A DNA stretch of 57,526 nt from Dehalococcoidia bacterium. Its GTDB lineage: Bacteria > Chloroflexota > Dehalococcoidia > Lucifugimonadales > UBA3495. The stretch covers positions 1 through 57,526 of the forward strand of contig JASLXV010000059.1 of the NCBI GenBank assembly GCA_030740155.1, in the 5' to 3' direction. Positions within the stretch are counted from its first letter, which is position 1. Every line of letters begins with the position of its first letter. Positions 17,704 through 23,700 of this stretch are shown in pieces. Made by a program: the position numbers.

Positions 17704-20700
17704 TAACCTCTCAAGCGGTCTTGGAAGGAGTTGACCGCAAGATGGACCGGGCCATTGAGGCATTAAAACGGGACCTCAATTCGTTACGGACCGGGAGGGC
17801 CACTCCCTCTTTGATCGAGAACGTTTCTGTCGACTACTACGGGGTCCCGACGCCTTTGAAGCAGATTGCCTCCATTACCGTGCCTGATGCCAGAGCTATC
17901 ATGGTGCAACCGTGGGACAAACAGTCGCTGCGCGAGATCGAGAAGAGCCTTATGAAGTCGGAGATGGGCTTTAATCCCTCCAATGACGGTAATATGATAA
18001 CGGTCCCCATTCCTCCCCTGAATCAGGAGCGCCGCCAGGACATGGTGCGCCTGCTGAAGCGGAAATTGGAGGACGGGAAAGTTTCCGTGCGAAACGTGCG
18101 CCGGGAAGGCCTGGAAAACCTCAGGAAGCTGGAGCGCGACAAGGTTGTTTCCCAGGACGAGAACCGGCGGGCCCAAGATCAGTTGCAAAAGATGACCGAC
18201 GGACACACCAAGGCGATTGATCAAGTCGGAGCAGCCAAAGAAACGGAGATCCTACAGGTCTAGCCATGCAGGTTCGGACTGCCTCTTCTCAACCACCGTC
18301 GTCAGGACCCTCGAAGGTCCCCGTCCATGTGGCCATCATCATGGACGGCAACGGTCGCTGGGCTCAAAAGCGGGGCCTGCCTCGTCTGGACGGGCACCGG
18401 GCCGGAGTTGCCTGTATTCAAGAAGTGGTGAAGACCCTCTCGGCCAAAGGCGTAAAGTTCCTCACCCTGTACGCCTTTTCCACGGAGAACTGGAACCGCC
18501 CCACGCCAGAGGTGGAGGGCATTCTGGAAATTCTCTATGAAGCTCTGGCGGAGCGGACCCAAGCCCTGCACGAGAACAACGTCCACATCGTCCACGTTGG
18601 GAAGGCGGACCGGCTCAGCCGGGCACTGCAAGACGCGGTGTCCAGCGCCCAGGATCTGACCCGGCAAAACACCGGCATCACCCTGAACGTGGCCTTCGAT
18701 TACGGCGGGCGAGACGAAATCCTGGCCGCGGTAAAGAAGATCATCAGGGACGGGGTGCCGGCGGAAGAGGTGGATGAGGGGCTCTTTAGCAGCTATCTCT
18801 TTACGTCTCACTCCCCAGATCCAGACTTGATAATCCGCACCGGCGGCGAGTTGCGGATCAGCAACTTCTTGCTGTGGCAATCCGCCTATAGCGAGTACTA
18901 CCATACCCCCACCCTCTGGCCTGACCTGGACACGGCTGAACTGGAACGGGTCTTAGAGGCATTCAGTAACCGCCAGCGCCGTTTCGGCAGGTTAAGTCCC
19001 GAGGGCTGATTGTTGCTCCACCGGATGATCTCGGCCCTGGTGGGGATTCCGGTCGTGGTGGGGGCTATCTGGTTGGGGGCGCCGTGGCTCACCGTCCTGG
19101 TGGCCGCGGCCGCGGTCTTGGGGGTTCGCGAAGCCTATCGAATGTTACCCCCCGGTATCGGTCCTTTCCCCGTCGCTCTGGGAATACTGTGGGCCATCGC
19201 CCTGGTGGTGGGCGCCCAAGCCGGGTCCGGTCTCAGCAGCTTCCTGCTCATCTCCGCCGGCATACTAGCTGCCGGCGCCTTCGTTGCGATCCTCTGGTTC
19301 ATCGCCTTCTACTCCGGGGGCAGATATCTGGTTGCCGGGATCTTCCTGGTGGGCGGGCCGGTGTACGTCGCCTTTCTGCTGAGCCACAGCCTGCCCCTGC
19401 GGGAAATAGGGGGCGCCGGCGACCTGGGCCGGAACTGGCTCCTGTTTGCCCTTCTGGTGACCTTCGCCACCGACACCGGCGCTTTCCTTTCGGGCCGTTT
19501 GCTGGGCCGGCACTCCCTGGCGCCCAGCATCAGCCCCAACAAGACCTGGGAAGGAGCGGCCGGCGGTTTGATCTGGGCGGTGTTTGCCACAGTGGCTCTG
19601 GGCCTGATATTCGATCTGGCGATACCTCGCTGGCAGCAGGGAACCATCGGAGCCACGATTGGGGCGGTCTCCCAATGGGGCGATTTGTTCGAGTCCAAGA
19701 TCAAGCGCCTATCCCTGGTCAAGGACGCGGGCGGCATCGTCCCGGGACACGGCGGTATCCTGGACCGGCTGGACAGCGTTGTGGTCTCAGTTCCCGTGGT
19801 GTACTATCTTCTTGCCACGGTATTTAAGCCATGAAGAAGATAGTTATTCTCGGCTCGACCGGTTCCATTGGCCGGCAGACGCTGGATGTCGTAAGGGTTT
19901 TCCCGGGCGAGTTTGAGGTGGTTGGCCTGGCCGCTGGTTCGAACTCAAACCTGCTTGTCCAGCAAATGGCGGAATTCCACCCCAAACACGTGTTCTGCCT
20001 GGATCCCCCCAAAAAGATACCGAAAGGCGTGACCTTTACCGAAATGGCCGAAATGGTGTGCCTGGAAGAGGTGGACCTGGTCATGGTGGCCACCACGGGC
20101 AGCGTCGGCCTGATCCCCACGCTCAACGCCCTGAAGCAAGGAAAATCGGTGGCTCTGTCGAACAAAGAGCCCATCGTGATGGCCGGTGGGTTGATCAAAG
20201 AGTACGAGGCGCTCTACGGCGGCGCGGTGCTGCCGGTGGATAGCGAGCCCAGCGCCATCTGGCAGTGCTTGCAAGGGGAAGACAGCACCATCCGCCGGCT
20301 GATGATCACCGCGTCCGGAGGGCCGTTTCGGACCACCCCCCTGGAAGAGCTGGCCCAAGTCACGGCGGTTCGCGCCCTGCACCATCCAACATGGAGCATG
20401 GGCCGCAAGATCACCATCGACTCGGCGACCATGATGAACAAAGCCTTCGAGGTCATCGAAGCGCACTGGTTATTCAATGTTCCCTGGGATAATATAGAAG
20501 TGGTGATTCATCCCCAGAGCACGATTCATTCGATGGTGGAGTTCGCGGACGGTTCGGTGAAGGCCCAACTGGGCCCACCCGATATGAGGCTGCCGATCCA
20601 GTACGCTCTCTTCTACCCGAAACGGGTTTCCAACGATATGATCCCAAAGCTAGATACAGGCATCTCTCACTCTCTGACCTTCGGGCCGATGGCTCCGGAG

Positions 20701-23700
20701 CGCTACCCGTGCTTCGATTTGGCCTTGGCCGCCGCACGGAAAGAAGGCACTCTGCCCACGGTGTTGAGCGCCGCCGATGAGGTAGCGGTCGAGGCCTTTT
20801 TGCAAGAGAAGATCGGGTTTACCGAGATCTACCGGGTGGTTGAAACGGTCCTCTCCGAACATCGGCTGCTGCCGGGCCGGGACGCCGAGGAGTTGATGGA
20901 AGCGGACCGGTGGGCAACCGTGCGAGCCCGCGAGATCATCCGGCATTAGCGGAATGGAATCTGCTCTCATTGCCATCGGGACTTTGGTCCCAATGCTGTT
21001 GTTCCTGGTGGTCGTGCATGAGGCCGGCCACTTTTTCACGGCCCGCGCCTTGGGGGTAAAGGTCCTGGAGTTCGGTGTAGGCTTTCCACCCCGGGCCTTC
21101 GGCCTTTACACCGGCCGGACCAGGGTGCTCATCGACCCCGACACCTCTTTCGTCAACCTGGAAAGCCTGGCGGACCTGCGGCCGGGACAGATCGTGAAGG
21201 TCAGCTCCACCGAAGACACCCACGGCAACCTGGTGGCCCGGATCATCGAGGTGCCGGAATCCCGGCGAGGCCCGGTGAGCCGGGGCGCCGGCACGGAAGT
21301 CTTCCAAGAGAGCCTGGAACCCGAAGGGCTGCTCAAGCACGAGGGCAAGGTGCGGGCAGTGGAGGCCGGCTCCTTCATCCTGGCGGACATGCTCTACTCC
21401 GTGAACTGGACTCCGCTGGGAGGGTTCGTTCGAATGGCGGGAGAGAGCAACCCGGACGTGCCCCGCAGTCTGTCCGGCAAGGGAGTCGGGACCCGTTTCG
21501 TGGTGCTGGTGGCGGGACCGTTGATGAATGCCATCCTTCCCCTGGCCATCTTCACGGCGCTCTTCATGATCCCCCAGGACGTGACTGTTGGCCGGGTGCT
21601 GATTTCCGAGATTGTGGCGGAGTCTGCCGCTGAAGAGGCGAATGTTCAGCCCGGTGACCTGGTGGTGCTGGCCGGTGGACACGAGATCGAGACCCGGTTG
21701 GACCTGACCCGGGCCATCGCCCTCAACGGGGGCGCCGAGATGGAGTGGCTGATCATCCGCGATGGAGTGGAGCAGGTCACCTATGTGAAACCCAGGTTCA
21801 ATTCATCCGAGGGGCGGTGGCTGGTCGGCGTCTTGCCCACGCTGATCGACACGCGGATGGTGAGCCGCTCCCAGCCGATATGGGAGGCGGTCCCGGAAAG
21901 TTTCGTCAGCACCTGGGAACTCATGGTGCTGGTGAAACAGACGATCTTCGGTGCGATTTCCGAGGGTGGCACCCCGGAGCTGTCCGGTCCTATTGGTATC
22001 GCCCAACTCACCGGGGAGGTTACCCGGGAGGGAGGGCTGACCGGTTGGCTGGCCGTTACCATCCTATTGAGCATCAACCTAGCCATCCTGAACATCTTGC
22101 CCATCCCGATGCTGGATGGGGGACGGCTGGTGTTCGTGGTGATCGAGTGGCTGCGCCGGGGCAAGCGGGTGCCGCCGGAGAAGGAAGGGATGGTCCACCT
22201 GATCGGCTTCGCCCTGTTGGTCGCGGCCATCCTGGTAATCAGCGCCAACGACATCAACCGGCTGATCCAGGGAGAAAGCCTGCTGGGCGGGTGACCGGCC
22301 CTGCCTCTTCTCGCGGCCCCTTCGGCGCCTTGGCTAACCCCATTGCCATAACCCTTTCAGGGTCCACCTTTGCTTTCGCTTGCCGAGCTTTGATTCCTAC
22401 GGGTACGGTGGCGCGACCCTTTCGCTTTCGTGTACCATTACCCTGGTGTCCGGCGTCTGGCGGCACGTGTGACTTGGGGCGCCGGTGATATTGCGGCGAG
22501 ATTACCTGGAAGGCTGGGTTTCGCCCTTGGATTGTTGGATTGTGTTGAGAGCGAGTAATGAATAAGCGCCGTCCCACCCGGCCGGTCTACGTGGGCGGCG
22601 TCAAGGTCGGCGGAGGGGCCGACATCACCGTCCAGTCGATGACCAAGACCGATACTCGGGACGTGGATGCCACCGTCCGCCAGATCCACGAGCTGGAGGA
22701 GGCGGGCTGCGAGATCATCCGGAGCGCCGTGCCCGATATGGAGGCGGCTCAGGCCATCGGCGAGATCAAGAAGCGGATTCACATCCCGCTGATCGCCGAC
22801 ATCCATTTCCACTACAAGTTGGCCCTGGAGTGCGTGAAGGGTGGCGTCGACTGCCTGCGCCTCAACCCCGGCAACCTGAGGGACGAAGGGCACGTGCGGG
22901 AGGTGGTTCGGGCCGCCAAGGAGCGGGGCATTCCCATCCGCATCGGCGTGAACTTCGGCAGTCTGCCCCCCGTGGGCGGCATCGGACGCACCAAAGGGTT
23001 TTCCCGGCACCTGGACCTGGTGAACAAGCTCCCCAAGGCCGGGGAAGGCCGGAAAGGTGAATACAGCGCCGTCGATCACATGCTGGCGACCGCATTGTGG
23101 GAGATCAGCCTGCTGGAGCAGCAGGACTTCGACCACATCAAGATCTCGATGAAGGCCTTCGACGTGCCGACCACCGTGGAGGCCTACCGGCGCCTGGCCG
23201 GGATGGTCCCCTATCCGCTGCACCTGGGCATTACCGAGGCCGGCACGGCCCAGGCGGGGTCCATTCGCACCGCGGTCGGTCTGGGCGTGCTTCTCTACGA
23301 GGGTATCGGCGACACCATTCGCGTGTCCCTGAGCAGTGACGCCAGGGACGAAGTCGAAGCCGGATACGATATCCTCAAATCCCTCAACTTGAGGCGGAAA
23401 GGCGCCGTCCTGGTGGCCTGCCCCAGTTGCGGCCGGGCCGACGTTGACGTGGTCAAGCTGGCCAACGAGGTGGATGCCCTGCTCAAGCGCAGCAAGAAGA
23501 GCGTCAAGGTGGCCGTCATGGGCTGCGAGGTCAACGGCCCCGGAGAAGCCAAGGATGCCGACGTGGGCATCGCCGCCGGGGCGGGCCGGGCCGTCATCTT
23601 CCGCAAGGGCGAGAAGGTGCGGGTGGTGCCCGGCGAGGAGATGCTTTCGGCGCTGATGGAAGAAGTGAATAATACCCCGGAGGCGCCATGAGATTTACCC

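Follow-up and report, generated by a model that had tools for sequence, protein, structure and literature searches.

DXP synthase, encoded by dxs, is normally the first enzyme in the synthesis of isoprenoids and of the thiazole of vitamin B1. In many lineages of the Dehalococcoidia, the ocean and sediment bacteria considered here, dxs has been deleted from its ancestral place, including in the SAR202-type genome analyzed, with dxr, ispD–H and often thiG remaining intact. Hereinafter, the window is the whole stretch of DNA that was analyzed, i.e., the 57,526 nucleotides of contig JASLXV010000059.1 (assembly GCA_030740155.1); the genome to which it belongs, G000, comprises 108 contigs, with a completeness of 93.7% (C1, C48 and C52 below are contigs of this genome), and other G and L numbers denote comparison genomes.

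The dxr locus and the MEP pathway of G000

In the window, dxr lies in a conserved block of the form rpsB-tsf-pyrH-frr-uppS-cdsA-dxr-rseP-ispG-proS, whose gene order up to ispG is identical in G191 and G022. The features around it are:

18266..19009, + strand: uppS, cis-prenyltransferase, an IPP consumer (TIGR00055 over cut-off)
19010..19834, + strand: cdsA-like phosphatidate cytidylyltransferase, an ordinary neighbor (NF008635 E 8e-33, under cut-off)
19831..20949, + strand: dxr, DXP reductoisomerase, 372 aa (TIGR00243 432 bits against a cut-off of 315.7; aligned to solved DXRs)
20954..22294, + strand: rseP metalloprotease, an ordinary neighbor (TIGR00054 over cut-off)
22558..23691, + strand: ispG, HMBPP synthase (NF001540 449 bits and TIGR00612 378 bits, both over cut-off)
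23688..25391, + strand: proS, the last gene of the block (NF006625 over cut-off)

No DXP-forming candidate was found within the block from rpsB to proS. The dxr gene had previously been called at 19831..20934; its identity stands, and its true end lies 15 bases further, at 20949. Judged by its sequence, the gene is intact: when aligned to solved DXRs, its product retains the catalytic motifs, with Pro in place of the His of DSE(H), a change specific to the lineage. We rejected this change as the mark of a different substrate, as its distribution (8/49 dxs-less versus 9/31 dxs-bearing genomes) is unlinked to dxs loss. Contigs from RNA libraries (0–3 differences) cover dxr in part in 3/4 runs from three studies, which, without a silent-stretch control, speaks to presence only; the stretches left uncovered carry no information.

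Elsewhere in G000, IspE and IspF score over curated cut-offs, IspH and IspD were identified from BLAST matches and gene position (by Pfam in G022), and ThiG was recovered with an E-value of 2e-106, in agreement with the survey's finding of dxr, ispD/E/F/G/H and thiG. Its claim that this genome has no dxs also withstood three kinds of searches: the DXS model TIGR00204 returned no match at a threshold of 1e-30; a custom HMM built from 10 Dehalococcoidia DXS and run with --max against six-frame ORFs of ≥60 aa matched only an E1-beta (1e-24) and the transketolase; and tblastn at E<=1 detected no dxs remnant on C1, the contig bearing the ancestral slot. Thus, of the canonical MEP pathway, G000 has Dxr, IspE, IspF and IspG over their cut-offs along with IspD and IspH, and has no DXP synthase (~620 aa, TIGR00204 over cut-off), which is the complement of all enzymes but Dxs that PMC10663253 asks of a Dxs-less MEP pathway. 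That definition also asks for fewer than two mevalonate-pathway enzymes, of which the search here covered HMG-CoA reductase (PF00368), in 0/5 genomes.

Clean deletion of dxs at its ancestral slot

We scored dxs as present when TIGR00204 exceeded its cut-off, as it does in 102/201 class genomes, 74/161 order genomes and 4/7 other genomes of the family of G000. It is accordingly absent from 99/201 class and 87/161 order genomes, i.e., about half, rather than from most SAR202 as had been supposed. Several families are devoid of it throughout (f8, 0/12; f21, 0/12; f43, 0/7), and its patchy presence inside genera (e.g., 6/7 in g154) implies that it is dispensable even where relatives have it. In the order, 32 single-contig genomes have dxs and at least 11 do not; in the class, it is missing from 16/42 single-contig genomes, every one of which has Dxr over cut-off. 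More generally, Dxr was matched in 77/77 dxs-less genomes tested, 75 of them over cut-off, and ThiG in 44/77.

The ancestral slot has the order tsaC-rpiB-dxs-ispA-pgk: among the 10 top-scoring class dxs loci, tsaC flanks dxs in 7/10 and ispA in 6/10. In G000, the slot falls within one contig, from which dxs is cleanly gone, as it also is in two other genomes. The gap from tsaC to the ispA-like gene is under 200 bp on C1 of G000 and 16 bp in G022; G191 retains both flanks known around the dxs of L337, with no dxs between them; and the metagenome contigs nearest to G000 that span the slot show it empty in 4/4 cases. No replacement gene occupies the slot in G000, G022, G191 or the four metagenome contigs. 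Since the slot is contiguous in one contig without dxs, we take this to be gene loss and not a hole in the assembly, and the synteny strengthens the earlier contention that DXP must arise by an unrecognised route. Of 25 dxs-bearing order genomes, none carries the gene at the ancestral slot; three members of the family have it 10–12 kb beyond pgk, a place corresponding to a tRNA cluster in G000. Gene position thus suggests that the dxs-bearing members of the order regained it as an accessory gene; a scan of metagenomes around hflX yielded no SAR202-type DXS usable for a tree.

Could dxs simply have escaped assembly or diverged beyond detection? The incompleteness of G000, its 108 contigs, the presence of dxs in 4/7 family genomes and its more frequent detection in order assemblies of few contigs would fit such an artefact. 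However, the ancestral and the family slots of G000 are both contiguous and both empty, the 16 dxs-less single-contig class genomes all have Dxr over cut-off, and whole families lack the gene. For the class as a whole, this reading is refuted, and we consider it extremely improbable overall.

Known DXS-independent systems as precedents

MEP pathways without Dxs are already known in other phyla, where they are unexplained. PMC10663253 (2023) tallies 181 species with all MEP enzymes but Dxs, 172 of them without the MTA shunt, leaves the mechanism unexplained and states the operation of the MEP pathway without DXS as an open question. Like those species, the Dehalococcoidia considered here have the MEP pathway minus Dxs and, as far as HMG-CoA reductase shows, no mevalonate entry. 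The list of that study (Supplementary File S1) is dominated by Wolbachia/Anaplasmataceae, anaerobic Firmicutes, Acidobacteria, Rhodothermus and Rubrobacter, and no Chloroflexota figure in it; among the rows listed, Dehalogenimonas and Tepidiforma are scored as having Dxs. In contrast to those cases, about half of a class is affected here, the clean deletion can be seen at the slot, and DXP has a second consumer in ThiG. A question that had concerned species for the most part host-dependent or scattered now bears on roughly half the members of a large class, which includes the abundant dark-ocean SAR202 and reported thiazole producers. We found no report of dxs absence in SAR202, Dehalococcoidia or Chloroflexota in the literature searched, whose coverage largely excludes subscription journals, and the main texts of PMC12236431, PMC10444878 and PMC11994032 do not contain the term "dxs".

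Rhodothermus marinus and some Acidobacteria offer free-living parallels that make carotenoids or hopanoids via the MEP pathway with no dxs found, and AceE has been suggested as the DXP source for Acidobacteria (bioRxiv 2021.05.17.444423; PMC5462960). However, many Dehalococcoidia are without any E1; hence, an AceE/E1 explanation cannot be general. The E. coli suppressors of dxs loss, namely AceE E636Q/Q408R/L633R, RibB G108S/D113G and YajO (PMC3424233 and PMC8227265), show how close RibB and the ThDP enzymes of housekeeping metabolism are to DXP synthesis: a single step away. The E1s here differ in being of the alpha/beta type, and a YajO-like reductase was discarded as a general answer, as a query with the G022 aldo-keto reductase, rather than E. 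coli YajO, found none in 13/35 dxs-less genomes. The RibBA proteins of G000 and G191 are wild type at the positions of E. coli G108 and D113, unlike the suppressors, which speaks against a RibB nDXP route via changes of that type. RibB G92 is reportedly linked to suppression too; the loop glycine motif occurs in 19/44 dxs-less and 11/36 dxs-bearing genomes, and, with the suppressor positions wild type, we rejected these residues together as a general explanation.

Mevalonate entry, as judged from HMG-CoA reductase (found in 0/5 genomes, as the survey had held for G000), likewise fails as a general explanation. Its statement that a RuBisCO-like enzyme is missing agrees with a check by an active-site motif of the MTRu-1P isomerase, which had no match in G000, G022 or the portion of G191 retrieved. 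In the literature covered, the only natural way to DXP described as doing without DXS is the MTA-isoprenoid shunt of Rhodospirillum rubrum. G000 has its MtnP and MtnA without the RuBisCO-like motif; mtnA-mtnP adjoin sahH-metK, with no mtnB, aldolase or RuBisCO-like neighbor. As a universal route the shunt was rejected, MtnA being present in 3/5 genomes and missing in G022 and G063. A split transketolase was also dismissed as a substitute for DXS: G063 and G071 have no other transketolase, whereas G191 has a canonical one and none of the split form is found in G000 and G022. With E1, MtnA and YajO-like enzymes eliminated as general answers, a short list of candidates remains.

Possible sources of DXP

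The explanation we favor, albeit tentatively, is that some housekeeping enzyme of the core yields DXP through a side activity, in amounts sufficient for slow growers. We infer that DXP is still made in the cell, by an enzyme already in the class core and not by a new pathway-linked gene. The likeliest chemistry would be ThDP-dependent transfer of a pyruvate-derived two-carbon unit to glyceraldehyde 3-phosphate, the low flux being tolerated through slow growth, with E1 enzymes perhaps supplying extra flux where present. If such a bypass pre-exists, dxs could have been repeatedly lost and regained as an accessory gene. The precedent comes from PMC3424233: Dxs-null E. coli makes trace DXP, insufficient for its growth, and is rescued by single changes in AceE or RibB; the proposed model would be the natural counterpart. 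A cultured SAR202 strain reaches stationary phase only after ~50 days (PMC10444878, which also names the complete genome of Ca. Lucifugimonas marina JH545, CP046146). The ThDP enzymes common to G000, G022 and G191 (about 4/5 of the latter read) are transketolase, an E1 pair, AHAS and an oxoacid oxidoreductase; POR_N is present in 5/5 genomes, AHAS in 4/5 and RibB in 34/36. Transketolase is the lead single candidate, although on its own an unlikely one, as the only DXS-superfamily member in every genome tested; it is the sole TK/E1/DXS-superfamily (Transket_pyr) protein in 5/5 dxs-less genomes selected because they have no E1. Other near-universal suspects are RibBA, acetolactate synthase and 2-oxoacid:ferredoxin oxidoreductase. 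No further gene appears coupled to thiG: across 68 Dehalococcoidia loci, only thiE (68/68) and thiS (66/68) recur within 8 kb.

Several observations count against a side activity. G000 encodes a squalene-hopene cyclase (over cut-off) within a hopanoid-type cluster, which suggests more than trace isoprenoid demand. Both donor-site histidines are kept in six transketolases (G000, G022, G191, G171, G109, G164), ruling out among these a pyruvate-accepting variant with loss of His100/102 or His473/474 (the split transketolases of G063 and G071 lie outside this set), and wild-type transketolases are described as inept with pyruvate (PMC7696235, PMC10787763). The RibBA suppressor positions are wild type, and the candidate enzymes are proposed from sequence.

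The survey had put forward the E1 alpha/beta pair on C48 (5147–7333) as one candidate substitute. It consists of two chains with best matches to PDH-type E1 alpha and beta models, not a single chain scoring as DXS; the DXS HMM reaches E 4e-18 on beta only. Its clade takes in five dxs-bearing genomes, and the pair shows no anti-correlation with dxs in the order (57 genomes with both, 17 with dxs only, 57 with the pair only, 30 with neither; 161 in all). Missing from 30/87 dxs-less and present in 57/74 dxs-bearing order genomes, it fails as a universal substitute. It has no match at 1e-60 in 22/52 dxs-less class genomes, and E1 alpha of any kind is absent from 31/48 dxs-less genomes in a set deliberately enriched for such cases; there are single-contig genomes with dxr and thiG and no E1 whatever. 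The description of the pair as lacking E2 is right for adjacency and wrong genome-wide, since C52 has an E2 without a neighboring E1, plus an E3; its nearness to cysS-ispF-ispD is plausibly shared synteny with secG-gatB. That this AcoA/B-like pair is a stand-alone carboligase making DXP in part of the order, with other lineages managing otherwise, is improbable. Its retention without an adjacent E2 in the 1.25 Mb G022 (58 and 57% identity), its presence in 114/161 order genomes, the ability of E1 enzymes to form hydroxyethyl-ThDP and carboligate without E2 (PMC7696235), and the Transket_pyr genes of E1-beta size in 5/5 order genomes checked that have neither the ortholog nor dxs are set against the above counts, the unpartnered E2 and E3, and family f21, which has no E1 alpha in 8/8 genomes (five single-contig) though all have dxr. 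More doubtful is import of deoxyxylulose or DXP from the surroundings followed by phosphorylation: imported thiamine pyrimidine is already needed (thiC is absent from G000 and G022; see also PMC12236431), and a single FGGY kinase is encoded in each of G000 and G063, but G071, G164 and G056 have none, dxs loss spans many families, and a defined medium of artificial seawater supports growth of the cultured strain, whose published pathway table (a table, not the genome) begins at dxr and has no dxs row (PMC10444878 and its Supplementary Data 1). Still less credible is a variant salvage of MTA or 5′-deoxyadenosine in some lineages, in which MtnP, MtnA and then a novel isomerase replacing the RuBisCO-like enzyme would give DXP; it is consistent with mtnA-mtnP beside sahH-metK and with MtnA also in G071, G164 and G191, but not with the lack of MtnA in G022 and the single-contig G063 or of the RuBisCO-like motif.

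The main rival to a housekeeping side activity, possible if rather unlikely, is a dedicated, non-homologous DXP-forming enzyme or short route in the class core, possibly thiamine-independent (e.g., dehydration plus reduction of a pentulose 5-phosphate), its gene labelled hypothetical or mis-assigned, that would have let half of the class delete dxs. The retention of Dxr and ThiG in dxs-less genomes, the failure of each known bypass as a general answer, the real flux implied by the hopanoid genes and the 172 unexplained species elsewhere argue for it, and the three-genome core (genes common to G000, G022 and G191) includes DUF1015, DUF1385, an MtnX-like HAD enzyme and several hypotheticals. However, no unassigned core gene is near isp/thi genes or in the dxs slot, and it would be strange for 46% of order genomes to have regained dxs were an efficient enzyme present. 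DUF1015 was rejected as a candidate, being in 5/5 genomes including a dxs-bearing one, and atlas searches with it and a core hypothetical gave no functional lead. Our scan of 325 core genes set aside 63 as housekeeping, among which a dedicated gene could lie. Since the cultured strain grows on a defined medium, with no dxs in its pathway table, the question is testable. A natural DXS bypass would be relevant to terpenoid engineering, in which DXS is a feedback-limited step, to DXS as a drug target and to "incomplete" pathways in environmental genomes. If real, a dedicated enzyme would open a new way into the MEP and thiazole pathways, and the 172 species elsewhere might be accounted for as well.

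Retention of the DXP consumers without DXP synthase

The 3.6 Mb assembly GCA_030740155.1 (hereinafter G000; 108 contigs, completeness 93.7%), of which contig C59 is the window, encodes the MEP pathway's Dxr step within the gene block rpsB-tsf-pyrH-frr-uppS-cdsA-dxr-rseP-ispG-proS:

19831-20949, dxr, an ordinary Dxr (TIGR00243, 432 bits)

IspE and IspF score over cut-off in profile searches, ispD adjoins ispF and cysS, IspH shares 55% identity with the Pfam-assigned LytB of the comparison genome G022, and ThiG, the second DXP consumer, is matched at 2e-106. The DXP synthase (DXS) model TIGR00204 finds no match in G000 at 1e-30, and an HMM built from ten Dehalococcoidia DXS, run against G000 six-frame ORFs and the whole of G022, matched only three E1-beta proteins and transketolase, but no DXS. 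The survey's finding of dxr, isp genes and thiG without dxs is thus borne out in this genome. Its isoprenoid demand is not trivial, as a squalene-hopene cyclase is encoded (TIGR01507, over cut-off). Outside the window, C37:21311-28740 holds a hopanoid-type cluster of a squalene synthase-like gene, squalene-hopene cyclase, hpn-like genes (by eye) and ispA.

Among 201 Dehalococcoidia genomes of 90% completeness or more, 102 have dxs over cut-off, and two of the remaining 99 have DXS fragments on broken contigs; these and the following tallies are counts of related, non-independent genomes, not statistical tests. Dxr was matched in all 77 dxs-less genomes tested (75 over cut-off) and ThiG in 44, including all 13 own-order members of that set, while dxs is missing from 16 of 42 single-contig genomes; those 16 all have Dxr. 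DXP synthase has been lost while the consumers of its product were retained. Within the order, dxs is present in 74 of 161 genomes, patchily inside genera and in four of seven other members of the G000 family; single-contig order genomes number 32 with and at least 11 without it. The proposition that most SAR202 lack dxs accordingly needs correcting to about half. Few-contig assemblies more often have dxs, an excess for which lineage or habitat, besides assembly quality, may be responsible.

In the portions available, Marshall et al. 2023 (PMC10663253) record 181 species lacking only Dxs, 172 of them unexplained and none from Chloroflexota, and other excerpts describe the same gap in Rhodothermus marinus and six Acidobacteria (bioRxiv 2021.05.17.444423; PMC5462960). 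The gap in Dehalococcoidia is of the same unexplained kind as in the Marshall et al. species, in an unusually large and testable instance. The accessible passages of PMC6107057 assign the MEP pathway to SAR202 and Dehalococcoidia and leave the gap unmentioned; those of PMC13001223 add nothing on Chloroflexota dxs. Passages of PMC12236431 state that 65% of SAR202 genomes carry thiG and thiE, and they confirm the thiG expression by UBA3495 that had been cited. No report of dxs loss in Dehalococcoidia was found in a literature coverage that excluded most subscription papers and bioRxiv supplements. We regard this as a real and well-supported addition to the dxs-less MEP pathways, which are known but lack an explanation.

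The emptied dxs slot and Dxr variants

Ancestrally, dxs occupies the slot tsaC-rpiB-dxs-ispA-pgk: of the ten class dxs genes with the highest scores, seven have tsaC next to them, six have ispA and two have pgk. On G000 contig C1, guaA, tsaC (10219-10827), an ispA-like gene (10999-11922) and pgk form an unbroken run that leaves no space for dxs. The tsaC-ispA gap of G022 is 16 bp, a short N run lying farther along, between the ispA-like gene and pgk; in the comparison genome G191, both flanks of the dxs of metagenome locus L337 are retained, and the gene itself is absent between them. Eighty metagenome loci were fetched around hflX, 15 of which extend to the slot region. The slot is empty in all four of these nearest G000; DXS immediately precedes pgk in 4/15, other genes do so in 4/15, and 2/15 end early. 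Locus L286 reads tsaC-rpiB-pgk without dxs. The loss is a clean deletion.

Of 40 dxs-bearing genomes, four (G058, G075, G011, G170) have dxs 2-4 kb upstream of pgk; none of 25 from the order does, two of which have dxs and pgk on separate contigs; three family members carry it 10-12 kb past pgk. From position, we infer an early loss followed by re-acquisition or relocation. The G000 equivalent of this family site is a contiguous tRNA cluster, in which no dxs remnant was found. There (C1:21890-23931, outside the window), an enolase-like ORF (400 aa, lower GC) is flanked by a cluster of tRNA-Val, Leu and Arg and by another tRNA-Arg, and the region looks like an integration site.

At 20239-20262 of the window, Pro replaces the conserved His of the Dxr DSEH motif, a variant that occurs across most of the order and also in families f19, f28 and f30, irrespective of dxs. 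Each of the seven genomes tested from family f8 encodes a divergent second Dxr (E about 1e-71). Its G035 copy (L034:10286-11500; G035:C1:2426313-2427407) has none of the DSEH, SGG and HPxW motifs and sits directly downstream of two genes resembling sufB and sufD by eye. The protein is probably not a reductoisomerase.

Candidate substitutes

The E1 alpha/beta pair at C48:5147-7333, earlier put forward as a DXS substitute, best matches PDH-type models (alpha under cut-off); from its motifs we take it to be acetoin-dehydrogenase-like. It may be an ordinary dehydrogenase, since on C52:17959-25869 (outside the window) E2 and E3 flank an oxoacid:ferredoxin oxidoreductase (OFOR) alpha/beta pair with no E1 alongside. 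Orthologs occur in the 1.25 Mb genome G022 and across the order (114 of 161 genomes), with no tracking of dxs loss:

Co-occurrence of dxs and the C48 E1 pair in 161 order genomes
dxs present: 57 with the pair, 17 without
dxs absent: 57 with the pair, 30 without

Its clade (support 99/97) holds five dxs-bearing genomes. E1 alpha of any kind is absent from 31 of 48 dxs-less genomes, a set picked as rich in E1-poor lineages; ten of the 31 carry thiG and dxr, four of them single-contig. Transketolase is the sole Transket_pyr protein in G063, G071, G164, G171 and G109. The pair is thus rejected as a general substitute. Some E1 might still form DXP within the order, as five order genomes without dxs and a C48 ortholog retain other E1-beta-sized genes. 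Directly upstream of the pair (C48:4165-5052) is a gene of the (R)-SAM hydrolase family, which scores under cut-off.

HMG-CoA reductase is missing from all five genomes sampled, in keeping with the absence described before. MtnA is in three of five (not G022 or G063), a RuBisCO-like motif gave no match in G000, G022 and the part of G191 covered, an FGGY kinase is in only two of five, and the aldo-keto reductase query used went unmatched in 13 of 35 dxs-less genomes. At C38:41678-46587 (outside the window), mtnA-mtnP adjoin sahH and metK, and the neighborhood lacks mtnB, an aldolase and a RuBisCO-like gene. RibB is present in 34 of 36 dxs-less genomes; the RibB suppressor route is rejected as a general answer, the G108 and D113 positions (E. 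coli numbering) being wild type in G000 and G191 and the loop motif not tracking dxs. Six transketolases likewise lack the donor-site change of pyruvate-accepting variants, retaining both histidines; engineered transketolases accept pyruvate once these are altered, according to the parts seen of PMC7696235 and PMC10787763. G022 shows no RibB match and no orthologs of G000 ribD, ribE and ribH, reflecting either riboflavin auxotrophy or a single assembly gap.

At 68 thiG loci, only thiE and thiS accompany thiG, with no linked new gene. A thiC-like gene (by eye) adjoins thiG in G143 and G045 (L036:10312-11670, L038:10103-11998); neither G000 nor G022 has a match to the G143 protein, fitting the reported pyrimidine auxotrophy.

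The shared core and possible sources of DXP

Reciprocal best hits between G022 (whole) and G191 (728 kb of about 900 kb), also present in G000, define a core of 325 genes from a simple gene caller that may have missed some; 262 were scanned, and 63 were omitted because they were housekeeping genes or had been identified before. Inspection by eye covered 396 of a further 450 G022-G000 orthologs, and 35 proteins, mostly from that set, were scanned. The core ThDP enzymes are transketolase, an E1 pair, acetolactate synthase and OFOR, the last two occurring in 4/5 and 5/5 further genomes, respectively. The core also contains unassigned proteins, namely DUF1015, DUF1385, an MtnX-like HAD enzyme and several hypotheticals; no isp or thi gene is linked to any of them.

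Repeated dxs loss and within-genus patchiness point to a bypass that would pre-date the loss and hence sit in the class core, where anti-correlation with dxs would not be required. We tentatively favor, at somewhat short of even odds, DXP formation as a side reaction of some housekeeping enzyme, because no linked new gene was found. Transketolase would be the lead single suspect, as it alone among universal enzymes matches DXS in both superfamily and triose-phosphate acceptor. E. coli lacking dxs still forms traces of DXP and is rescued by single substitutions in AceE or RibB (PMC3424233, in part), and cultured SAR202 grow very slowly (PMC10444878, in part). Both the demand for hopanoids and the canonical nature of the active sites count against such a side reaction, and for that reason a dedicated DXP-forming enzyme, not yet recognized, keeps a smaller though appreciable share of the probability. 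Uptake from the surroundings is weakened as an explanation: the consulted parts of PMC10444878 describe growth of strain JH545 on artificial seawater of defined composition, and the paper's Supplementary Data 1 table starts at dxr and continues to ispH without a row for dxs, which is suggestive only.

TPP_enzyme_C matches number 35 in G000 as against 4-7 in four other class genomes, indicating, at the level of domain matches, a large expansion of ThDP enzymes.
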